Assembly: GCA_964509655.1 (NCBI GenBank) | Contig: CAZDYW010000001.1 | Coordinates: forward strand, 1 to 48,481 | DNA length: 48,481 bases | Origin: an uncultured Anaerolineales bacterium | GTDB taxonomy: Bacteria > Chloroflexota > Anaerolineae > B4-G1 | Direction: 5' to 3' | Shown: one piece after another, positions 12,473 to 29,502 of the stretch | How the letters are laid out: each line of letters starts with the position of its first letter | How positions within the stretch are numbered: position 1 is the first letter of the stretch | Made by a program: the position numbers and the translations under genes | The notes under the pieces: model-generated | What the model was told of the DNA's origin: nothing | The model's input: the letters and a program-made list of their open reading frames with translations, nothing else | The model's database searches: none

Positions 12473-12976
12473 ATGCAAATTACACTTCAACAAATTTTGT
12501 TCATTATTTTCGGCGCGATCACGTTGGGGGCTGCCTTGATGGTGGTGACGCGCCGCAATGTTTTCCACGCTGCACTCTTTCTCATCTTATCCTTCTTCGG
12601 TGTGGCAGGGCTTTATGTATTGCTGGAGGCCCCTTTTCTCGCCGCCGTACAGCTGTTCATTTACATTGGTGGCATCTCAATCTTGATTATCTTCGCCATC
12701 ATGCTCACACAAAACATGATGGATCCCAACTTGCCGGGAGCCAATCGCCAGTGGTGGGCTGCGGCCTTGGTGTCCGTGGCTATTTGCGGCATTCTGGGGT
12801 GGGTGGTGTTGAACCGTAATTGGGGAACAGCTAGCGCGGAAGTGCCTCAGAACACCATCACGATTTTGGGCACCGCCCTGGTGGACCCAGAAGGATTGTT
12901 GTTGCCTTTTGAAGTTGCCTCGGTCCTTCTCTTAGTAGCCCTCGTCGGTGCTGTGACTATCGCAAGGGAGCAATGA
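12473..12976 (+). CDS. nuoJ: NADH-quinone oxidoreductase subunit J
   Basis: 167 aa with a NuoJ/ND6-like pattern (VVTRRNVFHAALFLILSF..., LFIYIGGISILIIFAIML). It starts 10 bp after nuoH, with no nuoI between them. Confidence 0.9.
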   Translation: MQITLQQILFIIFGAITLGAALMVVTRRNVFHAALFLILSFFGVAGLYVLLEAPFLAAVQLFIYIGGISILIIFAIMLTQNMMDPNLPGANRQWWAAALVSVAICGILGWVVLNRNWGTASAEVPQNTITILGTALVDPEGLLLPFEVASVLLLVALVGAVTIAREQ

Positions 12977-12979
12977 TTT

Positions 12980-13288
12980 ATGGTTCCTTTAGCTTGGTAT
13001 CTTATTCTTGCAGCAGCTTTGTTCTGCATAGGATTGTATGGCGTTCTCTCGCGGCGTAATGCCGTGGCGATTTTGATGGGCGTCGAGCTGATGCTGAACG
13101 CTGTCAACATCAATCTGGTCGCCTTTTGGCGCCACCTGGAACCGGGAGCGGCGACGGGGCAAGCCTTCGCGCTTTTCGTCTACGTCGTCGCAGCCGCCGA
13201 GGCGGGTGTGGGCTTGGCGCTTATAATCGCCGTGTGGCGCACCCGTGACACTGTTGTCCTCGAAGACATCGATTTGCTCAAAGGTTAA
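12980..13288 (+). CDS. nuoK: NADH-quinone oxidoreductase subunit K
   Basis: 102 aa with the NuoK/ND4L signature ([44 protein letters not shown]). Confidence 0.93.
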
Positions 13289-13302
13289 ACACCGAGGTGA
13301 CT

Positions 13303-15711
13303 ATGGAGATTCTCAACCTTGCCTGGCTGATACCCCTCTTCCCATTTCTTGCATTTGTTTCAATAGCGATCTTCGCCCACCGGAGTCGCCGGTTAAGCCA
13401 CCAACTAACTATTGGCGGCATCGCTTTTGCTTTTCTGATCGCGCAGATTGTCTTTTGGCGGGCAGTGACTTTGCCGGTGGGTGGCGGAGAGCATGCCTTC
13501 GAGTCCTCGACTGTCCACTGGCTGGTTGCGGGCGAAGAGCGGCTTACACTCGGCGTCTACGTCGATCCGGCCACGACGGTGATGCTCTTTATGGTGCCCT
13601 TGGTCTGTATGATGATCTTCATCTACAGTGTCGGCTACATGAACTTCGGCACGCCGGAGGTGGATCCCCGTTACAGCCGCTTCTTCTGCTACCTCTCCCT
13701 CTTCGCTACCGGCATGTTGGGAATGGTGGTTTTCAATAATCTGCTGGCCTTCTTCATCTTCTGGGAGATTATGGGGACTTGTTCTTATCTCTTGATCGGT
13801 TTCTGGTATGATAAGAGCTATCCTGATCCGGATAAAATTACTCCCAAGGAGGCCGGGCTGAAGGCCTTCATTGTCACCAAGATCGGTGATTTGTTCTTTA
13901 TGCTCGGTCTGGCGCTGCTCTACGCCGAGGTGGGATCGCTGGCCTACCGGGACATCTTCGCCGCCGAGACTCTGGAGCATCTGGCCCATGCTAACTTCCT
14001 GGGAACTCAATGGTCGCTGGCCTCCGTGATCGCCCTTTTGTTGTTTGGCGGCACTGTCGGCAAGAGCGCACAGTTCCCGCTCCACGTCTGGCTGCCCGAC
14101 GCGATGGAGGGCCCCACACCCGTCTCCGCTCTCATCCACGCCGCAACGATGGTTTCAGCCGGCGTTTTTCTGGTGGTGCGTGCCTTCCCAATTTTCGCAG
14201 CGGTCGAGGGCACCCATATGACAATTGTGGCGACCATTGGGGCATTCACGGCCATCTTCTCGTCCGTCATCGCCGTCGCGCAGGATGACATCAAGGGAGT
14301 GCTGGCCTTCTCCACCATCAGTCAGTTGGGGTATATGGTTGCCGCGTTGGGTATCGGCGCTTATGTGGCTGGAGCCTTCCATCTCATCACTCACGCTTTC
14401 TTCAAGGCGCTCCTGTTCCTCAGTTCCGGCTCGGTGATCCACGGTATGGAACATGGACATCATCACGCCCACGAGCACGCGGAGCACCATGATAATCATG
14501 ATAATCATGAAGTGCATGATGAGCACGGCGAGCATGAGGAAGAGGAGTGGTTCAATCCCAATGATATGAAGAATATGGGCGGTTTGGCAAAACGTATGCC
14601 GCGTACCGCTTTACCATTTCTCGCTGGTGGGTTAGCCCTCTCTGGTTTTCCTCTGTTCACCGCTGGCTTCTGGTCGAAGGATGAGATACTGGCGCAGGCT
14701 TACGAGCTATCCCCCGCCGTCTTCTGGACGCTGGCTGTGGCCGCTGGTCTCACCGCTTTCTACACCGCGCGTCAACTCTGCTTGACCTTCCTGGGGGAGC
14801 CGCGCACCGAGGCTGCCAAGCACGCGCCGGAGAGTGTGCCGTCTATGACGACCCCCCTGGCTATTCTGGCCGTTTTCGCGATTATTTTGGGCTGGGCTGG
14901 TATTCCGGAGCACTTCCCGGTCATCGGCGGGATCATTCCCAACTGGGTCCATCACTTCGTTGGCTCGACAATCGCGGGTGGACATGCTGAGCATGCGGCG
15001 AAAGTGGCTGGACATCTCTCGGAGGCCGCAGAGGCAGGCTTTGTGTGGCAGCCATTGGTGATGAGCATCGTCTTCGCGCTGGGCGGGTTGACATTGGGCT
15101 GGCTGGTTTACGGTCGCAAGCCGATGGTGGCCGGTGAGATGGATCGGGTGGAAGCAGCAATGCGCAAAGTGGGCTTCGGGTGGCTGTACGAAGCTATGCG
15201 CGACCAATTTTACTTTGACGAGATCTACCAGGCGATAGTTGTGCGTCCCTCTATATGGTTGGCGGACGTTTTTGACACATTCGATTATGGTCGTGAAGAG
15301 GGCAAGCACGGTGTGGTAGACGGCGTAGTAGTCTTGGCCGGAAAGATTGGAAGGGCTATGTCCGACATCTCCGGTTGGCTCGACGCCAACATTGTGGACG
15401 GATTGGTCAACCTAGTCGGGCGCTTTGGAAAGGCCCTATCCTTGGTCAGCGGTTGGCTCGACGTCAACATCGTGGATGGGTTGGTCAATCTGGCGGGCAG
15501 CGCTGGAGCCCTGCTATCCAATGGGTTCAACAGCTTCGATCTCACTGTGGTGGACGGCGCCGTCAACGGCGTCGCCGATGTCGTCATGGGCGGTGGGAAG
15601 GCAATCCGCCCTATTCAGACCGGTAAGGTTCAAAACTATCTGCTGCTGGCATCCCTGATGGTGCTGGCATTAATCTTGACATTCTTTATGATATTGTTCT
15701 TGCAAATCTAG
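13303..15711 (+). CDS. nuoL: NADH-quinone oxidoreductase subunit L. This is an unusually long form (802 aa) with a His-rich insert and a repeated lateral-helix region.
   Basis: NuoL/ND5 blocks are present (FFIFWEIMGTCSYLLIGFWY, GKSAQFPLHVWLPDAMEGPTPVSALIHAATMV, ISQLGYM, HAFFKALLFL, MGGL). I prefer the ATG at 13303 (MEILNLAWLIPL), which is preceded by GAGGTG. The track start is the GTG at 13297. Confidence 0.93.
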   Translation: MEILNLAWLIPLFPFLAFVSIAIFAHRSRRLSHQLTIGGIAFAFLIAQIVFWRAVTLPVGGGEHAFESSTVHWLVAGEERLTLGVYVDPATTVMLFMVPLVCMMIFIYSVGYMNFGTPEVDPRYSRFFCYLSLFATGMLGMVVFNNLLAFFIFWEIMGTCSYLLIGFWYDKSYPDPDKITPKEAGLKAFIVTKIGDLFFMLGLALLYAEVGSLAYRDIFAAETLEHLAHANFLGTQWSLASVIALLLFGGTVGKSAQFPLHVWLPDAMEGPTPVSALIHAATMVSAGVFLVVRAFPIFAAVEGTHMTIVATIGAFTAIFSSVIAVAQDDIKGVLAFSTISQLGYMVAALGIGAYVAGAFHLITHAFFKALLFLSSGSVIHGMEHGHHHAHEHAEHHDNHDNHEVHDEHGEHEEEEWFNPNDMKNMGGLAKRMPRTALPFLAGGLALSGFPLFTAGFWSKDEILAQAYELSPAVFWTLAVAAGLTAFYTARQLCLTFLGEPRTEAAKHAPESVPSMTTPLAILAVFAIILGWAGIPEHFPVIGGIIPNWVHHFVGSTIAGGHAEHAAKVAGHLSEAAEAGFVWQPLVMSIVFALGGLTLGWLVYGRKPMVAGEMDRVEAAMRKVGFGWLYEAMRDQFYFDEIYQAIVVRPSIWLADVFDTFDYGREEGKHGVVDGVVVLAGKIGRAMSDISGWLDANIVDGLVNLVGRFGKALSLVSGWLDVNIVDGLVNLAGSAGALLSNGFNSFDLTVVDGAVNGVADVVMGGGKAIRPIQTGKVQNYLLLASLMVLALILTFFMILFLQI

Positions 15712-19454: not shown

Positions 19455-19457
19455 TTG

Positions 19458-21347
19458 ATGCAAGGCTACAGTGGAAGAATTTTGCACATTGACTTGACTG
19501 ATCGCAAGACGTGGGTCGAGTCGAAACCGGAGGCGTGGTACAAGACCTATATCGGTGGCGTCTCGATGGCTACCCGACTTTGTTGGGAGAATATTGAACC
19601 GGGCTGTGACCCGCTATCACCGGACAATCCGATCTGCATTGCGAACGGGATCTTCGCGGGGACTCCCGTGCCAGTGGGGGGAAAATACGGTATGGCGTCC
19701 AAGTCGCCATTGACTGGCTTCATCGGCGATAGCCTATCGAGCAGCTGGTTCACAGTCGCGCTCAAACGGGCGCGATGGGACGGAATCGTCATTCACGGAG
19801 CAAGCGAGGACTGGGTCAGGGTCTTCATCGACGATGAAAAGATTGAATTTCGTGACGCTTCTCACCTGAGGGGCCTGACCACCACGGAGACCGAAGATAC
19901 AATTCGGGAAGCGTTCGGCGATGATCAGGTACGGTCAGCCGTTATCGGACCGGCCGGTGAGAACCTGTCACGCATTGCCAACGTGAGCAACGATGGTCGT
20001 AAGGCAGGTCGCACAGGCCACGGCGCGGTGTGGGGCTCGAAGAAGCTTAAGGCGCTTTCCGTGCGTGGCACCAACGGGGTGCAGGTGGCTGATCCTGAGA
20101 AGCTGCTTGAGCTTTCATACGATATTCTCCAAGCGGCGCAGGGGCCGCACACTCAGAAGTATCGAATCCTCGGCACCTCGTCGAACGTGCTGAACATGAA
20201 CGAGCTGGGACTGCTGCCAACTAGAAACTACCAGGAAGGCGTGTTTGAGGAAGCTGAACTGGTCAGTGGCGAGTACCTGCACGAACACTACAAAGCGAAG
20301 ACGATCGCCTGCGCTCAGTGCCCCATCGCCTGCGAGCAGGTCGGACGTCTGAAGGAAGGGCCGTACGCTCCTGCGATGGGACACATCGAGTACGAATCCC
20401 TCTTCGCTCTATCCTCGAACTGCGGCGTTAGCGATATGGAAGCCTCGATCAAGGCCATCGTAAACTGCAACGAGCTGGGTATGGATACCATGAGCACCGG
20501 CGTGACCATCAGCTGGGCGATGGAGTGTTACGAGCGGGGCATCTTCTCGGAGGAAGACTTTGCGGGCGAGCGGTACCCAGAGGGCTTCGAAGCGAACTTC
20601 GGCAATGGTATGGCGATGGTGAGATTGACCGAGATGATCGCTTACCGGGACGGCACCATGGGCAACCTGCTGGCCGAGGGGACGAAGCGCGCGAGCGCGA
20701 CCCTAGACGAGGAGCGGGGCACGGAAAGCTATAAGTGGGCGATGAACATCAAAGGTTTGGAGACCCCCGGCTACGACGCCCGATCGCTCAAGACGTTCTC
20801 TGTCGGGCTCGCGGTGGGAACGCGTGGCGGGTGTCACAACCGGTCGGCGGCGTATGATCCCGACATCAAGGGCCAAGTAGATCGGTTCAGCGTCGACGAG
20901 ACCCGAGGAGAGCTGGCAAAGAGCACGGAGGAATACGCAGCCGTGTATGATACGCTGCCCCTGTGTAAGTTCATTCGTCGCTGCTTCACCGGAAAAGCGG
21001 ATCGCGAGGGAGCCTGGCCAGCTATTGCCAATCTGATCAACGCCACGACGGGCTGGGACTTCGACTACGACGCCGTGGACTTGATTGGCGAGCGGGCCCA
21101 CACGATGAAGAAGGCCTTCAACATCCGCGAGGGCTGGACGAGAGAAGATGATCACCTACCGTATCGGTGGCAGCACGAGCCGATGACGAAGGGAGTCTCG
21201 GCCGGTCACGTGGTGACCGATGAGGAATTGGAGTACCTCAAGGATCTCTACTACGAGGCCAAGGGCTGGACTGAGGACGGTTTGATCCCAAAGGAGAGAT
21301 TAGAGGAATTGGGGATGGAAGACGTCGCAGAAGAGATTGGTGTATAG
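19458..21347 (+). CDS. aor: Aldehyde:ferredoxin oxidoreductase family (tungsto-/molybdopterin enzyme)
   Basis: 629 aa. It has an AOR N-terminal domain (GRILHIDLTDRK..., GGKYGMASKSPLTG), the [4Fe-4S] motif CAQCPIAC plus a distal Cys, and pterin-binding blocks (GLETPGYDARSLK, GGCHNRSAAYD). The ATG at 19458 is 7 nt after GGAGG. Confidence 0.93.
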   Translation: MQGYSGRILHIDLTDRKTWVESKPEAWYKTYIGGVSMATRLCWENIEPGCDPLSPDNPICIANGIFAGTPVPVGGKYGMASKSPLTGFIGDSLSSSWFTVALKRARWDGIVIHGASEDWVRVFIDDEKIEFRDASHLRGLTTTETEDTIREAFGDDQVRSAVIGPAGENLSRIANVSNDGRKAGRTGHGAVWGSKKLKALSVRGTNGVQVADPEKLLELSYDILQAAQGPHTQKYRILGTSSNVLNMNELGLLPTRNYQEGVFEEAELVSGEYLHEHYKAKTIACAQCPIACEQVGRLKEGPYAPAMGHIEYESLFALSSNCGVSDMEASIKAIVNCNELGMDTMSTGVTISWAMECYERGIFSEEDFAGERYPEGFEANFGNGMAMVRLTEMIAYRDGTMGNLLAEGTKRASATLDEERGTESYKWAMNIKGLETPGYDARSLKTFSVGLAVGTRGGCHNRSAAYDPDIKGQVDRFSVDETRGELAKSTEEYAAVYDTLPLCKFIRRCFTGKADREGAWPAIANLINATTGWDFDYDAVDLIGERAHTMKKAFNIREGWTREDDHLPYRWQHEPMTKGVSAGHVVTDEELEYLKDLYYEAKGWTEDGLIPKERLEELGMEDVAEEIGV

Positions 21348-21357
21348 GAGAAACGTA

Positions 21358-21852
21358 ATGGTTCTTCCTTCAACTTCGAAGCACGAGTATATAGCGTGTG
21401 ATGCCGAGAAGTGCGTCGGCTGTCAGATATGCGAGTACGTCTGCTCATACAACAAGACAGGCGAATTCAACACATTTCGCAGCCGGATCCGTACCGTGCG
21501 TGAGCACAAGATTCTAATGACGGCGGTGGCCTGCCGCACGTGCGAGGATGCGCCGTGCGTAATCGCTTGTCCCCGCGATGCTTTGACCCAGGATGCGGAT
21601 ACTGGCGTGATCCGCGTGGACACAGGACGTTGTGACGGGTGCGCGTGGTGTATCGAGGCCTGCGACTTCGGTGCTATCTCCATCAACCCCCGGACCAAGC
21701 TGGCCGAGATGTGTGACCTGTGTGAGGACGAGGAGGATGGCCCCCAGTGCGTCAAGTGGTGTCCGAAGGAGGCGCTCGAGGTCACGATCCCCGATCGGAG
21801 AGCTCAGCGGGCGCGGCGCAAGCGGGCGATCGAGGAAGTCCTCGGGCGGTGA
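21358..21852 (+). CDS. Four-cluster [4Fe-4S] ferredoxin-type electron-transfer subunit (DmsB/HybA/AorA-like)
   Basis: Four Cys groups are present: CVGCQICEYVC, CRTCEDAPCVIACP, CDGCAWCIEAC and CDLCEDEEDGPQCVKWCP. The ATG at 21358 follows AGGAG. The track start 21337 overlaps aor. Confidence 0.88.
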   Translation: MVLPSTSKHEYIACDAEKCVGCQICEYVCSYNKTGEFNTFRSRIRTVREHKILMTAVACRTCEDAPCVIACPRDALTQDADTGVIRVDTGRCDGCAWCIEACDFGAISINPRTKLAEMCDLCEDEEDGPQCVKWCPKEALEVTIPDRRAQRARRKRAIEEVLGR

Positions 21853-21966
21853 GGTCGCGGATGATATAGCCTATCGTCGGGCGCGGTTGTGTCACTGGGA
21901 GCGCGATTACGGGATGTTCCGGTGGCGCGTCCTCGCTTGACACTGTGAGTTCCGAGATGTAGAGAG

Positions 21967-21996
21967 CGGGTCTGAACGTCGACACCCTCAGACCCG
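21967..21996 (+). other. 9-bp stem-loop between the AOR-ferredoxin genes and hdrA (possible terminator, processing site or leader structure)
   Basis: CGGGTCTGA (21967..21975), a 12-nt loop, then TCAGACCCG (21988..21996). The following sequence is pyrimidine-rich (ttcctttatt) but is not a clean U-tract. Confidence 0.35.
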
Positions 21997-22022
21997 ATAC
22001 GTTCCTTTATTGGGAGGACAGT

Positions 22023-24536
22023 ATGGCAGGAGATAACGGAAACGAAGAAGTGCGCACGGGCGTGTACGTGTGTCACTGCGGTTCCAACATCGCCGGGGTT
22101 ATCGATCCCAAAGCCGTGGTCGAGTACGCAGCGACACTTCCCGGCGTGGTCCGGGCGGTTGAGACTCCTTACGCCTGTGCAGACAGCGGTCAGAGTGTCA
22201 TCAGAGAGGACATCGAGAAGTATGACCTGAACCGGGTCGTCGTGTCGGCATGCTCCGTGCGGATGCACGAGCCGACCTTCCGCTCGGTCGTCGCCGAGGC
22301 GGGGCTGAACCCGTTCTTGATGGAGATGGCCAACATCCGCGAGCAGTGCACGTGGGCCCATGGTCACGATGAGGAGGGGGCCCTGGAGAAGGCGAAGAGC
22401 CTGACGGCAGCGGCTGTGGCGAAGGCTCGATTTTTGACACCGTTGGACATGATCAAGGTGCCGGTCACCAAGCGGGCCATGGTCATCGGCGGTGGCGTGG
22501 CAGGCATCAGCGCGGCTCTGGATCTGGGTGATCAGGGCATCGAGACGATCTTGGTGGAAAAGGAGCCTACCATCGGAGGGGTGATGGCGCAGTTGAACAA
22601 GACCTTTCCCACGATGGACTGTAGCATATGAATACTCGCCCCCAAGATGGTTGACGCGTCGCGTCACCCGAAGGTAGATGTAAGAACGTTCACGGAAGTG
22701 GAGCGAGTCGAAGGATTCGTCGGCAATTTCAAGGTCCAGCTACGCGAGAAATCGCGGTACGTTTACGAAGATCGGTGCAACGGCTGCGGCGAATGCGCAG
22801 ACGTGTGTCCAATCGAGGTGCCCAACTACTTCGAGCTGAGCCTGGCCCCCCGCAGAGCAATCGACGTACCGATGAGCCAATCGGTGCCCCTGGTCTACAA
22901 CGTCGACATGGACGCCTGCATCGAATGCTACAAGTGCGTTGAGGCGTGCGGCGAACTGGACGCGATCCACTTCGGCATGGAGGATGATCTCGTCTGGGAG
23001 GACGTCGGTTCAATTGTCGTGGCCACGGGCTTCGACCACTTCGATCCCACGGCGATGTCGGAGTATGGCTACGGACGCTTCCCCAACGTGATCACGTCGA
23101 TCGAGATGGAACGGCTCAATAACTCTGCCGGCCCGACGGGCGGTGAGCTGATGCGGCCCAGCGATGGTGAGGTGCCGGAGCGCCTGGCCATCATCAACTG
23201 CGTAGGCTCGCGCGACAAACGGTTCAACCCGTCGTGCTCCAACTTTTGCTGCATGTACGCGATCAAGAACGCCGTTCTGCTCAAGCAGGCCTATCCTGAT
23301 ATGGACCTCAGCCTCTACTACATCGATATCCGGACGCCGTCCAAAGGATACGAGGAGTTCTACAACCGCGCGCGTGAGATGGGCATCCGTTTCATCCAGG
23401 GTCGCCCCGGACTGATCACCGAGGATCCCGATACCCGCAATCTGTTTGTCGAGTCGGAGGATAGAGACCTGGGCCAGGTCACCGAAAGCGAGTACGACAT
23501 GGTGATGCTGAACCAGGCTGCCGTGCCTCAGCCTGACGTCGACTCTATCAGCTCCGTGCTCAATATCACCCAGAGCCCCGGAGGGTGGTTCATGGAGTAT
23601 CACCCGAAGCTGCGGCCGCTCGACACGCCGACCGATGGCGTGTTCCTGGCCGGCGCGTGTCAGGGGCCGAAGGACATCCCGTCCAGCGTGTCGCAGGGAT
23701 CGGGTGCGGCTGCCCGAGCCGGACGAGTGGTCCACGCCGATGAGTGGGAGATTGAGCCCGTGATCGCCGCCGTGTGGGAGGATCGCTGCATCAGCGCACA
23801 GGGCAAGAAGTGCGGCCTCTGTGTGCGAGCGTGCCCGTACGGCGCGATTGAGTACGAAGAGGGAAAGGCGCCCAACATCATCACCGCCAAGTGTCACGGC
23901 TGCGGCGGGTGCGTGGCAGAGTGTCCCCATAACGCGATGACCCAGTTGCACTTCACGGATGCTCAGATTCTGGCGCAGATGCAGACCCTGCTGGCCGACA
24001 AGCCGGAGGAGAAGATCCTGGCCTTCCGCTGCCATTGGTGTTCCTATGGCGGCGCAGACCTGGCCGGAGTCAGCCACTTCGAATACTCGTCCAACGAGCG
24101 CGGCCTACGCGTCATGTGCTCCGCCCGCATGGACGCTGACTTCATCTATGAGGCGTTCCGCCTCGGGGCGGGCGCGGTTCTCTTCTCCGGCTGCCATCCG
24201 CAGGACTGTCACTACATCACCGGGCAGCGTGTTGGCGCGCGAAGAGCGGAGCGGCTGTTGAGGCGGTTTGAGAGGATGGGTATGACGCCTGGGCGCTTCC
24301 GCGTCGAGTGGATCAGTGCGGCCGAAGGTGACAAGTACGCACGGGTGATCAACGAGATGCAAGAGGTGCTGGATTCCGTGACCAGAGAGGAATTGCTGGA
24401 GGAGATCGAGGAATTGCGGCCGGATATGGCGAAGAGAGCTCGGCGTATGCGCCAGGTGCCGTTGGTCGAGGAGGCCTCGGACTTCGCAGAGGAGATCGCG
24501 GAGGCGCGCAGGGCGGGAGAGCCGGAAGCCGTGTAG
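22023..24536 (+). CDS. hdrA: Heterodisulfide reductase subunit A homologue with a C-terminal MvhD domain. It is a predicted selenoprotein with TGA at 22629..22631 read as Sec (837 residues).
   Basis: Two track ORFs (22023..22631 and 22647..24536) are in the same frame and separated only by TGA. The read-through product is colinear with HdrA. It has the N-terminal VCHCGSNIAG...ACS.RMHEP...REQCTWAH domain, the GGGVAGISAA FAD fold, FPTMDCSI-U-ILAPKM, an inserted ferredoxin (CNGCGECADVCP / CIECYKCVEAC), CSNFCC, GACQGPKDIP, a C-terminal 2x[4Fe-4S] domain (CGLCVRACP / CHGCGGCVAECP), and an MvhD/FlpD domain (LAFRCHWCSYGGAD...SGCHPQDCHY). Confidence 0.88.
22649..22668 (+). other. Candidate bacterial SECIS hairpin downstream of the hdrA UGA
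   Basis: GGU(U)GACGC - GUC - GCGUCACC forms 8 bp with one bulged U and has G and U in the apical loop. The hairpin starts 17 nt after the UGA, and the loop begins 26 nt after it. Confidence 0.5.
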
Positions 24537-24603
24537 GTTCACGGGGACTAGGACCACATGAGAGTCCCTTCTTTTGCAACAGAAGACGGTAGGAGAACGC
24601 CTA

Positions 24604-25563
24604 ATGGCAGATCAAAGGTCTCAAACTCAAACCTTCGCTGACCAGGTCCGTGCGATTCCCGGTGGAGAGCATCTGGAGATGTGTTACTCGTGCGGCACGT
24701 GTGTCAGCAAGTGTATGATTCAACAGAAGGTCGAGCCGGAGTACAACCCACGCCGCCTGCTGCGTATGGTGATCATGGACATGCAAGAGGAGGCATTCAA
24801 GAGCCCAACAACGTGGCTCTGCTCCGCTTGCGACCTATGCTATCCAGCTTGCCCGCAGGAAATTCACATATCGGGTGTCATCGGCGCGGTCAAACAGCTG
24901 GCCGTCGAGGCCGGCTATGAGTCGCCGCTGGAGACCGTCTCGGTGGACGAGTCGCTGTGCTCCGGCTGCGCCATCTGCGTGATGACATGTCCGTACGAAG
25001 CGCCCCACTTGGTGGAGAAGGAAGTCGATGGTGTGATGGACCGTCTCTCCGAGGTGGATGCGAACGCCTGCATGGGATGTGGCATCTGCGTCGCGGCATG
25101 CCCGATGGGTGCTATCTCGCGGCCCGGCGTAGCGAACGAGGAAATCCGGGCACAGCTCGACGTGCCCAGGCGAAACGGTGCGCCACGCATGGTGGCTTTC
25201 GTGTGTGACTGGTGCCTCCGAGCAGATGCAGACGTCACGCTTCTCGAGAGTTACCCTGAGAACGTGCAGGTAGTGCATATACCTTGTACTGGACGCATCG
25301 ATCCAGAGATGGCGCTTATGGCGCTGGGTTCAGACATCGACGGAGTGCTGGTCTGCGGCTGCGCGCCCGATGAGTGCCACTACCAGCGCGGCACGATGGT
25401 CAGCAGCTGCAAGATCGGGCTGTTGAATCGGGCGTTGGAGCAGATGAATATGGGCGACGGCCGGGTGCGCTTCGTACAGATCGGCACACAGGACCGTGGC
25501 CGCATCCGGAGCGAGATAGACCATATGATGGAGCACCTGGTGGCCTGGAAGGGGGCGGTGTAA
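24604..25563 (+). CDS. Three-module iron-sulfur protein: HdrC-like N-terminus, a 2x[4Fe-4S] ferredoxin, and a C-terminal MvhD/FlpD domain
   Basis: The modules are CYSCGTCVSKC...CSACDLCYPACP (HdrC-like), then CSGCAICVMTCP / CMGCGICVAACP, then VAFVCDWCLRADAD...IPCTGRIDPEM...VLVCGCAPDECHY (MvhD). The ATG at 24604 follows AGGAG. The track start (TTG 24574) is an extension. Confidence 0.85.
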   Translation: MADQRSQTQTFADQVRAIPGGEHLEMCYSCGTCVSKCMIQQKVEPEYNPRRLLRMVIMDMQEEAFKSPTTWLCSACDLCYPACPQEIHISGVIGAVKQLAVEAGYESPLETVSVDESLCSGCAICVMTCPYEAPHLVEKEVDGVMDRLSEVDANACMGCGICVAACPMGAISRPGVANEEIRAQLDVPRRNGAPRMVAFVCDWCLRADADVTLLESYPENVQVVHIPCTGRIDPEMALMALGSDIDGVLVCGCAPDECHYQRGTMVSSCKIGLLNRALEQMNMGDGRVRFVQIGTQDRGRIRSEIDHMMEHLVAWKGAV

Positions 25564-26573
25564 TGGCGAAAGCAAAGCCCAAACTCGCATTCTACTGGGC
25601 GGCCAGCTGCGGCGGGTGCGAGATCACGATCACCGAGTTGGGCATGCAGCTCATAGCAACGGGTGAGAAGGTCGACATCGTCTTCTGGCCCTGTTTGATG
25701 GACTTCAAGTACAGCGACGTCGAGGCGCTGGAGGACGGCGAGATCGACGTATGCTTCTTCAACGGGGCGATTCGTTCGAGCGAGAACGAGCACATCGCCC
25801 ACCTGCTCCGCCAGAAGTCGAAGGTCCTCGTGTCCTTCGGGTCATGCTCCCACACCGGAGGGATCCCGGGCCTGGCGAACTTCTACGATGCCGAGTCGAT
25901 CCTGGAGCGGGTCTACGGGTCGACACGCCCCAGTACCGCCTCGTCGCTGGACGACTCGCGTGGGACCCGCCCCACTCCGTCGGTGGAGATGCCAGAGGGC
26001 ACGATCGAGATTCCCACTTTCTACGACCAGGTCTTGACGCTGGATCAGACGGTGGAGGTGGACTACTTTATGCCTGGTTGTCCGCCGGTAGCCGACCAGG
26101 TGTGGAACGTCTTCCAGACGGTCTTGGATGGGGGGCTGCCGGAGCGGCGGGCCACTATCGGTGTCGATGCTAAGACGAACTGCGACGTCTGTCCTCGAGA
26201 GAAGGGAGAGGGCGGATTCCGCGTGAAGGAATGGAAGCGACCGCACGAGGTCGAGCTAGACCAAGAGGTCTGTTTCTTGGCGCAGGGTGTTATCTGCTGT
26301 GGACCGGTCACCCGAGCGGGGTGTGGACTGCCTTGTATCAGCGGCAACATGCCGTGCCGCGGCTGCTACGGTCCGCCGGAGGGGGTCGTCGATCAGGGGG
26401 CGAAGTTGTTCAGCGCGATCGGAGCGTTGATCGATACCGACGAACCAGAAGCCGTGCAGCAGATCATGGATACGGTTGTTGACCCGGCCGGGCTCAGCTA
26501 CCGGTTCGGGTTGGCAAACTCTCTCCTGAATGCGCTGAAGTACGGAAAGAATTCTGAAGAGGATGAAGTATGA
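25563..26573 (+). CDS. mvhG: [NiFe] hydrogenase small subunit, group 3 (MvhG-like)
   Basis: MAKAKPKLAFYWAASCGGCEI, GSCSHTGGIPG, PGCPP, and a C-terminal Cys-rich medial/distal cluster region (CDVCPREK, CCGPVTRAGCGLPCISGNMPCRGCYGP). The start overlaps the upstream stop (TAATG). The track ORF 25374.. is a 5' extension. Confidence 0.9.
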   Translation: MAKAKPKLAFYWAASCGGCEITITELGMQLIATGEKVDIVFWPCLMDFKYSDVEALEDGEIDVCFFNGAIRSSENEHIAHLLRQKSKVLVSFGSCSHTGGIPGLANFYDAESILERVYGSTRPSTASSLDDSRGTRPTPSVEMPEGTIEIPTFYDQVLTLDQTVEVDYFMPGCPPVADQVWNVFQTVLDGGLPERRATIGVDAKTNCDVCPREKGEGGFRVKEWKRPHEVELDQEVCFLAQGVICCGPVTRAGCGLPCISGNMPCRGCYGPPEGVVDQGAKLFSAIGALIDTDEPEAVQQIMDTVVDPAGLSYRFGLANSLLNALKYGKNSEEDEV

Positions 26574-28036
26574 GCCAAAAGATTAGTATAGACCCGATTA
26601 CGCGCCTGGAGGGCCACGGCCGGATCGATCTCTTCCTCAACGAGGATGGAGAGCTGGTCAACGCCTATCTGGTGGTCCCCGAGCTGCGCGGGTTCGAGAA
26701 GTTCTGCGAGGGCCGGCCGGTGGAGGAGATGCCGCGCATCACGCAGCGCATCTGCGGTGTGTGTCCAATCGCCCACCACGTCGCGGCCGCCAAGGCAGGC
26801 GACGCCGTGTACCACGTCGATCCACCGCCAGCGGCCAAGAAGCTGCGCGAGCTGCTGTACGCGTCTTTCTTCGTCGCCGATCACGCTACTCACTTCTACG
26901 CGCTGGCGGCACCCGATTTCGTCGTCGGTCCCGACGCACCGAAGGCCGAGCGCAACCTGCTGGGCGTGGTGCGGAAAGTGGGCCAGGATACGGGGGCACG
27001 TGTCGTTCAACTTCTGCAGGAGAATCACGAGATCGCGAGTATCGTGGCCGGCCGCTACATCCATTCCGCCAGCTGCATCCCGGGCGGGATGAGTAAGCCC
27101 ATCACTGAGGACGAGCGAAAGCGCATTGTTGAGATCGCCGAGCGCTCCATTGAAACGGCGCTGTTCTCCCTCCAGTTGTTCGACGAGGTGGTGTTACAGA
27201 ACCAGGCCTATGTCGACATGATCCTGAGCGATGCGCTTGCCCACGAGACCTACTACATGGGCCTGGTGGACGAGAACAACCAGGTCAACTTCTACGACGG
27301 TCAGGTGCGCGTGGTCGGTCCGGACGGCAAGGAACTCCTTAAGTACAGCGCGCACGAATACCTGGACGTGGTGGCGGAGCACGTCGAGCCGTGGACTTAC
27401 TTGAAGTTCCCATATCTGAAGCAGGTAGGGTGGAAGGGGTTCGTCGATGGCCCCGAGAGCGGCGTCTATCGGGCCTCGCCCTTGAGCCGGCTCAACACGG
27501 CCGACGGCATGGCGACGTCTAAGGCTCAGGCCGAATACGAGCGTTTCTACGACACGCTGGACGGCAAACCGGTACATGCGACGTTGGCTACCCACTGGGC
27601 AAGGCTGATTGAGCTGCTGTACGCCGCCGAGCGAACTCTGGAGCTAGCTGAAGACCCGGAGATCACCAGCGAGGAGATTCGGGCAATCCCGACTGAAACA
27701 CCGGACGAGGGTGTGGGCATCGTTGAAGCCCCGCGGGGCACGCTGACTCATCATTACGTCACCGACGAAAACGGGCTGCTTGAGCAGGTCAATCTGATCG
27801 TCGGCACGACCAACAACTATGCTGCCATCAGCATGTCGATCAAGAAGGCGGCTCAGGATCTGGTGCGCGCCGGACAGCTTGTCGACGACGGTCTACTGAA
27901 CAAGATTGAGATGGCGTTGCGAGCATACGATCCATGCTTTGGCTGTGCAACCCATGCTTTGCCGGGTCAGATGCCGATGATTGTGCGGCTCTACAACGAA
28001 GAGCGGGAATTGGTACAGGAGATCCGTCGGGACTAG
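26570..28036 (+). CDS. mvhA: [NiFe] hydrogenase large subunit, group 3 (MvhA-like)
   Basis: RLEGHGRIDL, the N-terminal Ni-binding motif RICGVCPIAHH, and the C-terminal motif DPCFGCATH followed by a 26-residue extension, which is the expected substrate of the maturation endopeptidase. There is an ATGA overlap with the small subunit gene. Confidence 0.95.
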   Translation: MSQKISIDPITRLEGHGRIDLFLNEDGELVNAYLVVPELRGFEKFCEGRPVEEMPRITQRICGVCPIAHHVAAAKAGDAVYHVDPPPAAKKLRELLYASFFVADHATHFYALAAPDFVVGPDAPKAERNLLGVVRKVGQDTGARVVQLLQENHEIASIVAGRYIHSASCIPGGMSKPITEDERKRIVEIAERSIETALFSLQLFDEVVLQNQAYVDMILSDALAHETYYMGLVDENNQVNFYDGQVRVVGPDGKELLKYSAHEYLDVVAEHVEPWTYLKFPYLKQVGWKGFVDGPESGVYRASPLSRLNTADGMATSKAQAEYERFYDTLDGKPVHATLATHWARLIELLYAAERTLELAEDPEITSEEIRAIPTETPDEGVGIVEAPRGTLTHHYVTDENGLLEQVNLIVGTTNNYAAISMSIKKAAQDLVRAGQLVDDGLLNKIEMALRAYDPCFGCATHALPGQMPMIVRLYNEERELVQEIRRD

Positions 28037-28044
28037 GAGAGGGT

Positions 28045-29019
28045 ATGGCTAGACGAGGAAGAACGAGGAAGCAGACCAGTGAGTGTGCGATCACGCTCAA
28101 ACGCGCCATGGTCACGCGCCAGTATAGGATGGAATGGGACCTGGAGCGGTGCGTGGGTTGTGAGCTGGGGCCTTTGGTCTGCCCCAAGGAAGCCGTCGAG
28201 CACGTGCCGGGGGAAATCGAGGATGGTCGGATGGCGAAGAAGCCGGCTGTGGACATCGACGCGGAGGCGTGTGTGTTCTGCGGCATGTGCGAGGTCATCT
28301 GCCCGAAGGATGCTATCACCCTGACCATCAACGGGGAGCGCGAGAATCCGGTGTTGGTGCACGAGGCGTTCCCGGAGTTGATCGAGTCGACCACTTTCCA
28401 CGAGGATAAGTTTGATTGGAGCAGGAAAGATCTCGTTATCGACAACTGCCCCACCGATGTGATCAGTTACGACGAAGAGGAAGAAACGCTGGTGGTCGAT
28501 GACGAGCACTGCATCCGCTGCCGTCAGTGCGAGGTCGCCAGCGATGGCGCCTTTGAGGTCACGCAGGCCTGGTCAGGCCAGGTAGAGCTGCATCGCGAAC
28601 GATGTGTGGAGGGATGCCTCGCCTGCGCCGACATCTGCCCGACGCGCGCGCTGTCCATCGACGAGGATAGCGGGGAACTGGTCCTAGCTGACTACTACTG
28701 CATCAAGTGCGGTGCTTGCGTACAGGTGTGCCCAATCAAGCCGTCGTATGAAGAGTACGACATAACGGTCGAGTCCCAGGGGGTGAGCAAGACGGTGACC
28801 CATCGGAAGATCACGAACCGCGACGAGCTGCCGATCTGGGTGGAACGGTGGCGCGTGCGGCATCATCCGGTCCAGAGTGGAACGTGGATCGAGGCGCTGA
28901 CCAAGTTGGCCGATGATAGGGCTGGTATGGTCGAGATTGACAGCAAGCGAGCGCTAAAGCGACGCGATCTGCTAAAGGTCCTTGCCGGAGCGAAAACGCT
29001 CTTGGGCCTCGAGGAGTGA
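28045..29019 (+). CDS. Polyferredoxin-like multi-[4Fe-4S] protein (MvhB-like)
   Basis: Multiple cluster motifs are present: CVGCELGPLVCP, CVFCGMCEVICP, CIRCRQCEV, CVEGCLACADICP and CIKCGACVQVCP. The ATG at 28045 is 9 nt after the large-subunit stop and is preceded by GGAGAGGG. The track ORF 27934.. is a 5' extension. Confidence 0.85.
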   Translation: MARRGRTRKQTSECAITLKRAMVTRQYRMEWDLERCVGCELGPLVCPKEAVEHVPGEIEDGRMAKKPAVDIDAEACVFCGMCEVICPKDAITLTINGERENPVLVHEAFPELIESTTFHEDKFDWSRKDLVIDNCPTDVISYDEEEETLVVDDEHCIRCRQCEVASDGAFEVTQAWSGQVELHRERCVEGCLACADICPTRALSIDEDSGELVLADYYCIKCGACVQVCPIKPSYEEYDITVESQGVSKTVTHRKITNRDELPIWVERWRVRHHPVQSGTWIEALTKLADDRAGMVEIDSKRALKRRDLLKVLAGAKTLLGLEE

Positions 29020-29502
29020 TTAGAGCGACGCGTCGTCTGTCCCCTTCTTCACCTCAGCGAGGACTGCGTCCACGGCACGAGGGACCGCCTTCTCAACCGC
29101 CGAAGTACATTCCTCGCCGAAGGTGAAGGGGTCCTCCACCTCGATGGCGATAATGACGAAATTCTCGTCGTCGGGTAGCGTCCATCCCATTGCCCGACCC
29201 AGCGCAAGCGCCCCGGGCAGGGATACGTCGTGCGATGATCCCGCGTGTAGGGAGAGCTTGAGGTCCTGCGGAGTTAAGCGGTAGATATCGCCGGGCTGAC
29301 CGCTACGCGTCTGGATCGCGTCTACCATAACGACTCGTTGGTAGCCCTCAATGACGTCGAGTATGCGGAGGCCCCCCACGCTTGCTTCGCTGAAGTCCAC
29401 ATTCTCTTCCTGGGGACGTTCGGCCGCCTCGCGAACGACGTAAATCCCGATGCCGTCGTCGCGCAGGATCGTGTTCCCCATTCCCAGTACCAACGTCTTC
29501 AA
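29020..29502 (-). CDS. Hydrogenase maturation endopeptidase (HyaD/HycI/FrhD family)
   Basis: MKTLVLGMGNTILRDDGIGIYV, then DAIQ and SSHD. These give the metal-ligand pattern D...D...H of this protease family. The gene is convergent, and its stop abuts the polyferredoxin stop with 0 bp between them. Confidence 0.9.
   Translation of the reverse strand: MKTLVLGMGNTILRDDGIGIYVVREAAERPQEENVDFSEASVGGLRILDVIEGYQRVVMVDAIQTRSGQPGDIYRLTPQDLKLSLHAGSSHDVSLPGALALGRAMGWTLPDDENFVIIAIEVEDPFTFGEECTSAVEKAVPRAVDAVLAEVKKGTDDASL

Follow-up and report, generated by a model that had tools for sequence, protein, structure and literature searches.

HdrA containing selenocysteine (Sec) was catalogued in 2006 in Deltaproteobacteria and Clostridia (Syntrophobacter fumaroxidans, Syntrophus, Moorella, Carboxydothermus and others, PMC1794560), and it is also known in Methanococcales and Methanopyrus (PMC1794560, PMC13188914). 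In the Hdr-Vhu-Fwd structure of Methanococcus maripaludis (9SFI), the residue is published as Sec197 (U197); it is paired with a Cys, the pair lying between cluster A3 and the FAD, and its precise role is explicitly left unresolved (PMC13518236). In an earlier comparative paper, the N-terminal [4Fe-4S] cluster of one HdrA protomer is described as being ligated by Cys197 of the other (PMC9012536). No description of a Sec-HdrA in Anaerolineae was found in the published literature. The DNA analysed here, hereafter the window, is a stretch of 48,481 nucleotides from an uncultured Anaerolineales bacterium of the class Anaerolineae (Chloroflexota; contig CAZDYW010000001.1). Judging from the sequence, its positions 22023..24536 very probably form one gene, which encodes a Sec-containing HdrA fused to MvhD.

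Two open reading frames (ORFs), 22023..22631 (202 aa) and 22647..24536 (629 aa), lie in the same frame of the plus strand, and the sole interruption is the TGA at 22629-22631. The local codons, gac tgt agc ata TGA ata ctc gcc ccc aag atg gtt, read D C S I * I L A P K M V. The translation of 22023-24536 gives 837 residues, free of stops except for this TGA, up to the terminal stop at 24534-24536. The read-through product was compared with structures and NCBIfam models with Cys substituted at the TGA. Its residues 8-659 are colinear with residues 2-652 of a solved HdrA (5odc_A, E 9e-245), further colinear HdrA matches being 8rvu_a (2e-230), 7bkb_A and 9sfi_A, while residues 662-796 match MvhD/VhuD chains, including 9sw2_D and 5odc_D. 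The product is thus an HdrA by full-length colinearity with solved HdrA, over the N-terminal Cys-rich domain, the thioredoxin-reductase-like FAD domain, the inserted ferredoxin and the C-terminal 2x[4Fe-4S] domain. The top NCBIfam hit is NF040770, the model for the HdrA2 fusion type, whose whole length is covered (positions 1-774 of 777) at 1031.7 bits; this score is under the curated cut-off of 1100 bits, so the protein is not an NF040770 equivalog.

Where the upstream fragment ends, Pfam recognises an FAD/NAD Rossmann fold over its first ~40 residues only, and in the downstream fragment it recognises ferredoxin and FlpD (MvhD) domains; FAD and Fer4 domains are found across both halves. Since the FAD/NAD fold begins at the end of the upstream fragment, the TGA splits one domain in two. 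The first-pass annotation of this DNA had proposed two ORFs in one frame that are separated only by the TGA, a colinear 837-residue HdrA with a fused MvhD domain and an FAD-binding fold cut in the middle, and all of this is borne out.

An ungapped alignment places residue 203, the recoded position, on Cys197 of the Methanothermococcus HdrA (5odc_A). The same column is Cys in the 8rvu, 8rvv and 7bkb chains, and in 9sfi_A it holds a non-standard residue X at position 197 ('tfptddcamXilapk'), which is the published Sec197. The in-frame UGA is therefore aligned to Cys in homologues and to Sec in a characterised HdrA. By this alignment, residue 203 sits at the known Sec/Cys site of the HdrA family, inside a C-x-x-C/U motif, as the first-pass annotation had predicted when it assigned the TGA to a conserved Cys column that is Sec in Methanococcales. 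Its description of the site as 'near the flavin' is only approximate, Cys197 being reported as a cluster ligand (PMC9012536) and Sec197 as lying between A3 and the FAD (PMC13518236).

The conservation of the TGA was examined in related loci. One genome per species was scanned, 291 were returned and the best 80 were retained, which together with the window gives 81 sequences. These 80 relatives are nearly all metagenome-assembled genomes of Anaerolineae/Anaerolineales, including Pelolinea, Brevefilum and Mesolinea bins, but also include the cultured Ornatilinea apprima P3M-1, and their proteins are 75-94% identical to that of the window. A TGA occupies the hdrA codon in 80 of the 80 related loci (81 of 81 with the window), within FPTMDCSI*ILAPK, and the codons which flank it vary synonymously (GAC/GAT, TGT/TGC, AGC/AGT/TCG/TCC, ATA/ATC/ATT). 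Both halves of the gene are under strong purifying selection, and no disruption besides the TGA is seen. One locus of the Anaerolineae type (L073, JASFER010000059.1; 77% identity, same TGA and hairpin) comes from a genome binned as Desulfobacteraceae; this may be a case of mis-binning or of lateral transfer.

The five codons between the TGA and the ATG at 22647 are informative, being untranslated if the gene is split. Their third positions vary freely (GCC 31, GCA 47, GCG 2 and GCT 1 for Ala; CCC 44, CCA 19, CCT 14 and CCG 4 for Pro). This pattern indicates that the ILAPK stretch is under protein-level purifying selection, because its amino acids are invariant in the 81 sequences while the third positions vary.

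The opposite pattern is found immediately downstream, where RNAfold predicts a hairpin with a lower stem (22648-22650 paired with 22668-22670) and an upper stem (22652-22657 paired with 22661-22666). The apical loop, 22658-22660, reads GUC in the window and begins 26 nt past the UGA. Both RNAfold and RNAalifold draw a 1x1 U.C mismatch at 22651/22667; in some lineages the C at 22667 is replaced by A or G, which converts the mismatch to a U-A or U-G pair. RNAalifold, run on the 81 sequences, independently predicts the same helix. The hairpin has a minimum free energy (MFE) between -9.2 and -14.3 kcal/mol in 81 of 81 sequences, its loop is GGC in 72 and GUC in 9, and its core, GACGCG(G/U)CGCGUC, is near-invariant. 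The hairpin and the distance of 26 nt reported in the first-pass annotation are thus recovered, and the bulged U that it described can be drawn equally well as the U.C mismatch.

According to the published criteria, a bacterial selenocysteine insertion sequence (SECIS) has an apical loop of 3-9 nt that carries a G in its first two positions (mostly as G(G/U)), an upper stem of 4-16 bp, a distance of 16-37 nt from the UGA to the loop and an MFE of at most -7.5 kcal/mol (PMC13188914). With its loop of 3 nt (G(G/U)C), its upper stem of 6 bp, its spacing of 26 nt and the MFE values given above, the hairpin falls within all of these limits, and the SECIS-type geometry claimed for it earlier holds.

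In a codon alignment of the 81 genes, the mean normalised synonymous entropy is 0.82 over 675 usable degenerate columns, and only four of these columns are below 0.08. The four are consecutive codons, 22650-22661 (GTT in 79 of 80, GAC in 81 of 81, GCG in 81 of 81 and GCG in 72 of 72, the other nine sequences having TCG), and they correspond to the 5' arm of the hairpin, its loop and the first base of its 3' arm. The five-codon windows with the lowest entropy of the whole gene start at 22647 (0.012) and 22650 (0.036), whereas the lowest window that does not overlap them has 0.485. The alignment indicates that the hairpin is under RNA-level selection beyond the protein-coding constraint, because protein constraint cannot freeze third positions in this way.

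The TGA and the hairpin occur together, as the TGC-bearing relatives that were folded (L081, L021 and L026) have no such hairpin. The closest full-length relative in the protein collection, P0009 (L081; 819 aa, 65% identity), has TGC at the site, and its downstream sequence differs and folds weakly (-4.7 kcal/mol). In three of the related loci, another hdrA paralogue lies some kilobases past the Sec-hdrA (L021, around 5172; L025, around 7093; L026, around 11698); it has TGC, within the motif FPTNDC[AS]MCILSPK, and the folded copies (L021 and L026) are devoid of a SECIS-like hairpin. No Cys-type paralogue was found in the window.

The TGA is not a sense codon throughout this genome segment. The stops of the 33 Pfam-supported genes of the window are TGA in 12 cases, TAG in 14 and TAA in 7, and a global reassignment of TGA (genetic codes 4 or 25) was rejected on the grounds that TGA ends 12 of these 33 genes. 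A scan of the window for other gene-internal in-frame TGAs gave none that was convincing, and hdrA is the only gene with an in-frame TGA in its cluster. The large subunit of the [NiFe] hydrogenase encoded in this cluster (window 27701-28036) ends with DPCFGCATH and is thus of the Cys type, even though its C-terminus is assigned by NCBIfam to the selenoprotein subunit VhuU.

Several results weigh against decoding of the hdrA UGA as Sec. Taken as a single sequence, the hairpin is only slightly out of the ordinary: the fold is not significantly more stable than its shuffles (z of -0.13 and +0.61, the 62-nt stretch included), and about 2% of window positions have, at the spacing of a SECIS, a hairpin of at least 6 bp whose loop starts with G. 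With a stem that is nearly invariant, the 81 sequences show no compensatory double change, so that the structure is supported by conservation, not by covariation; 85% of the stem cells are paired, compared to 27-45% when the partner strand is slid. No Rfam SECIS family matches the whole window at the gathering score, or the region 22400-22900 at E values up to 10, the sole hits of the hairpin searches being two chance CRISPR-DR matches. Finally, neither the 48-kb window nor 1.5 Mb of sequence flanking the related loci yielded a tRNA-Sec, selA, selB or selD. ARAGORN detected no tRNA-Sec in the window and all 80 loci, Pfam scans of the remaining window ORFs gave no Sec machinery, and a six-frame scan of the 1.5 Mb for SelA, SelD and SelB motifs, a weak test, returned nothing credible. 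A selenoprotein gene need not have the sel genes in its vicinity. For Chloroflexi, the Sec-decoding trait has been reported along with an unusual 8/4 tRNA-Sec (PMC5322559, PMC5389517), and Sec-containing formate dehydrogenases have been reported in Anaerolineae-related single-cell genomes (PMC5736913). A search for the hairpin core across all loci gave just the reverse-strand reading of the same palindrome and four chance hits, and there is thus no second selenoprotein gene with the same SECIS nearby.

In the proposed mechanism, the ribosome would arrive at the UGA and the hairpin of the mRNA, with its G(G/U)C loop, would recruit SelB carrying GTP and Sec-tRNA(Sec). Sec would be inserted as residue 203, and translation would run on to the terminal stop. 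Sec203 would replace Cys197 of archaeal HdrA, the second residue of the C-x-x-C/U motif of the thioredoxin-reductase-like domain. Its expected role would be to help transfer electrons around the N-terminal [4Fe-4S] cluster and the bifurcating FAD, whether by ligating the cluster or by acting as the redox-active partner in a selenenylsulfide. We infer that the Sec machinery is encoded in the genome, that selenium is incorporated and that residue 203 has a catalytic role.

A conserved UGA followed by a conserved hairpin might also be recoded without selenium, by a SelB-like factor with a tRNA-Cys(UCA) ('selC*') or by a suppressor tRNA, so that Cys or another residue would be inserted. Indeed, in some anaerobes, a selC* tRNA-Cys with an opal anticodon and a second selB copy can translate a Sec-UGA as Cys (PMC5389517), and nothing that was computed separates Sec from Cys at the hdrA UGA. 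We nevertheless consider this very unlikely. The selC* tRNA has been reported in Firmicutes, Thermodesulfobacteria, Nitrospirae and Proteobacteria, each time beside a complete Sec system, whereas Chloroflexi are not among these groups (PMC5389517), and the same column is experimentally Sec in the HdrA from M. maripaludis (PMC13518236). In addition, UGC and UGU are one step away from UGA, and the retention of UGA in 81 genomes would be hard to explain if the product simply contained Cys.

The other explanations dispense with recoding. The hairpin and the TGA could be a device for termination, pausing or reinitiation, with a restart at the ATG 22647, located 15 nt past the TGA, and the two polypeptides would then form a split HdrA; split and fused HdrA variants do occur in nature (PMC9012536, PMC1794560), and gene callers yield precisely the 202-aa and 629-aa products. 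Yet the ILAPK codons that precede this ATG are under strict protein-level selection, with synonymous variation only, in 81 of 81 sequences, and the ATG itself is the codon of the conserved Met in ILAPKMVD, a motif shared with archaeal HdrA. Inspection of the sequence upstream of ATG 22647 revealed no Shine-Dalgarno motif comparable to the GGGAGGA of the real start, and a break at this point would fall within the FAD-binding fold, on a conserved residue of the cofactor site. Such a device is therefore highly improbable, and a genuine two-gene arrangement in the relatives, which the first-pass annotation had named as a possible refutation, is contradicted by the persistence of the TGA in 80 of 80 loci and by the same two features of the ILAPK codons and the upstream sequence. 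That hdrA is a pseudogene, or that the TGA is an assembly or sequencing error for TGC or TGT, would require a single base change only, and the current RefSeq record of O. apprima appears to have cut the product call to a 189-aa fragment. However, the same TGA is present in 80 independently assembled genomes with 75-94% protein identity, which excludes a sequencing error and a pseudogene, and the strong purifying selection acts on both halves, without other disruptions; the chance that either applies is negligible, and this reading is effectively refuted. Decoding of the UGA as Sec remains by far the best account of the locus.

Features of the hdrA-mvhD locus and of its neighbours in the window
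Feature	Position	Strand	Basis or remark
hdrA fused to mvhD, predicted single gene	22023..24536	+	837 codons + stop, selenocysteine as codon 203; read-through translation, structure and NCBIfam matches
Shine-Dalgarno GGGAGGA of the real start, ATG 22023	22012..22018	+	sequence inspection
C-x-x-U redox motif (predicted), Cys200-Ser-Ile-Sec203, thioredoxin-reductase-like domain	22620..22631	+	aligned to C194-x-x-C197 (5odc_A) and C-x-x-X197 (9sfi_A)
Predicted UGA selenocysteine codon, residue 203	22629..22631	+	TGA in window and 80 related loci; aligned to residue 197 Cys/Sec; Cys-type relative L081 has TGC
Five ILAPK codons, untranslated in a split-gene model	22632..22646	+	ILAPK in 81/81; normalised synonymous entropies ~0.46-0.89
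Predicted SECIS hairpin	22648..22670	+	RNAfold, RNAalifold, synonymous-site freeze
Fused MvhD (FlpD) domain, residues 662-782	24006..24368	+	Pfam PF02662, 2e-38
AOR-type tungsten enzyme	19455-21347		upstream of hdrA-mvhD
AorA-like Fe-S protein	21337-21852		between AOR and hdrA-mvhD
HdrC-like/Fer4/MvhD protein	24574-25563		next gene downstream of hdrA-mvhD; only its N-terminus HdrC-like

The mis-annotation that the first-pass annotation foresaw is widespread. The exact 202-aa and 629-aa fragments of the window gene are on record in NCBI, and 119 of the best 120 database homologues are fragments of 620-637 aa, the exception being the 819-aa P0009. In JGI, many 629-aa fragments are named 'heterodisulfide reductase subunit A'. 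The RefSeq entries of O. apprima, WP_075061754.1 (629 aa) and WP_407944713.1 (189 aa), are both called 'hydrogenase iron-sulfur subunit' and belong to one 90%-identity cluster; it seems that the gene was re-called as a still shorter fragment instead of a Sec protein. In total, HdrA-MvhD is mis-called in at least 80 species-level genomes, mostly of Anaerolineae, including that of the cultured O. apprima. Because the gene is called as fragments, metabolic reconstructions carry truncated models and miss the selenium requirement of these organisms, which are abundant in anaerobic digesters and sediments.

Sec-HdrA is already known in bacteria, and the Anaerolineae case is mainly a correction of annotation which involves no new mechanism; it leaves the genetic code and the knowledge of the HdrA family unchanged. 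The clean and deeply conserved SECIS could be used to study SelB-SECIS recognition in Chloroflexota and to train selenoprotein finders. A lineage in which Sec is fixed in HdrA while the hydrogenase and MvhD have Cys also offers a natural comparison for the role of residue 197.

The genes around hdrA-mvhD form a cluster that spans 19455-29502. Beyond the neighbours listed in the table, it encodes MvhG-like (small) and MvhA-like (large) subunits of a [NiFe] hydrogenase and a polyferredoxin, with a HycI-type maturation protease on the opposite strand. In 70-74 of the 80 loci, synteny extends to the genes for the AOR and its Fe-S subunit. The AOR is closest to the AOR from P. furiosus (1aor) and to the AorB chain 8c0z; its identification as BamB, of benzoyl-CoA reductase, was rejected, 1aor and 8c0z being far better matches than the BamB chain 4z3w. 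Of the 80 loci, some of which are cut off by contig ends, 36-38 were seen to carry hydrogenase genes. In O. apprima (L042, 13541-16368), genes for FrhB/FdhB-like, Fer4_22 and NAD-binding/DHODB-type Fe-S proteins occupy the position of the hydrogenase; the observation also concerns L053, L060 and L076. The electron-input module beside Sec-HdrA thus seems to be interchangeable from one species to the next. Among the window ORFs that were scanned, Pfam detected no CCG domain and hence no HdrB. True heterodisulfide reductase activity requires HdrB/HdrC partner subunits with CCG domains, and the protein is therefore called HdrA-like here, and not a subunit of a CoM-S-S-CoB reductase.

It is conceivable, although doubtful, that Sec-HdrA/MvhD is the bifurcating core of an undescribed Anaerolineae complex, in which the HdrA flavin module would be wired to a true tungsten AOR (AorB-like and AorA-like subunits) and would receive electrons from an exchangeable input, either the Mvh-type [NiFe] hydrogenase or a FrhB-like, NAD(P)H-dependent module. 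The layout of the cluster is analogous to that of class II benzoyl-CoA reductase (BamBC, BamDEF and an input module), but it is built around a true AOR. If such a complex exists, it could couple H2 or NAD(P)H to acid/aldehyde chemistry at very low potential, and Sec might be conserved for tuning the low-potential branch.

Some gene boundaries in the cluster deserve mention. In the window, one ORF (24574-25563) accounts for the whole Fer4+MvhD gene; in O. apprima (L042) it is represented by two overlapping ORFs in different frames (12511-13104 and 13065-13544), which could result from a frameshift, an assembly error or a genuine split. The listed ORFs 24574-25563 and 25374-26573, as well as 26570-28036 and 27934-29019, overlap by 100-190 nt. 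The family matches of the hydrogenase small subunit begin only at ORF residues 64-79, so its true start is further downstream than listed, and the true start of the polyferredoxin is probably also downstream of the listed ORF start. Elsewhere, the start of the contig has direct repeats of ~300 nt (1-300 and 1114-1413; 87%) and 91 nt (402-492 and 1527-1617; 75%), ~1.1 kb apart. They look like the tandem duplication of a gene with a low-complexity region, and the ORFs at these repeats have no Pfam match.

Among the known systems, the HdrAu from Methanococcales (M. maripaludis Sec197, 9SFI) is of the same family as the Anaerolineae protein, with which it is colinear over ~650 residues, and it has the same recoded column and the same C-x-x-U. 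It is likewise associated with MvhD/VhuD and with a [NiFe] hydrogenase of the Mvh/Vhu type. The archaeal Sec-HdrA gene is decoded by the archaeal Sec machinery. The SECIS of archaeal HdrA lies in the 3' untranslated region (PMC13188914), whereas the hairpin described here is in the coding region, right after the UGA, which is the bacterial mode. The locus also differs from that of Methanococcales in that MvhD is fused to HdrA, the hydrogenase is of the Cys type (DPCFGC) and no HdrB is seen among the scanned ORFs.

The Sec-HdrA genes from Deltaproteobacteria and Clostridia are also clustered with mvhD/'frhD' and hydrogenase genes (PMC1794560), and in the general bacterial model Sec is decoded, as here, via a SECIS inside the coding region (PMC13188914). 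The MvhD, hydrogenase and GlpC of these two groups are frequently selenoproteins as well, whereas hdrA is the sole gene with an in-frame TGA in the Anaerolineae cluster. The phylum is also different (Chloroflexota), and an AOR-type tungsten enzyme and its Fe-S subunit are encoded upstream. The HdrA2 from Methanosarcina (NF040770) has the same fused HdrA-MvhD architecture, but it is a Cys protein which works with HdrB2C2, whereas here residue 203 is most probably Sec, and no HdrB was found among the scanned ORFs. Compared with the consensus model of the bacterial SECIS, the loop, stem, spacing and MFE (about -11 kcal/mol) of the hairpin are all within limits; it differs from this consensus in that its loop has the minimum size and its stem is a near-perfect, GC-rich palindrome.

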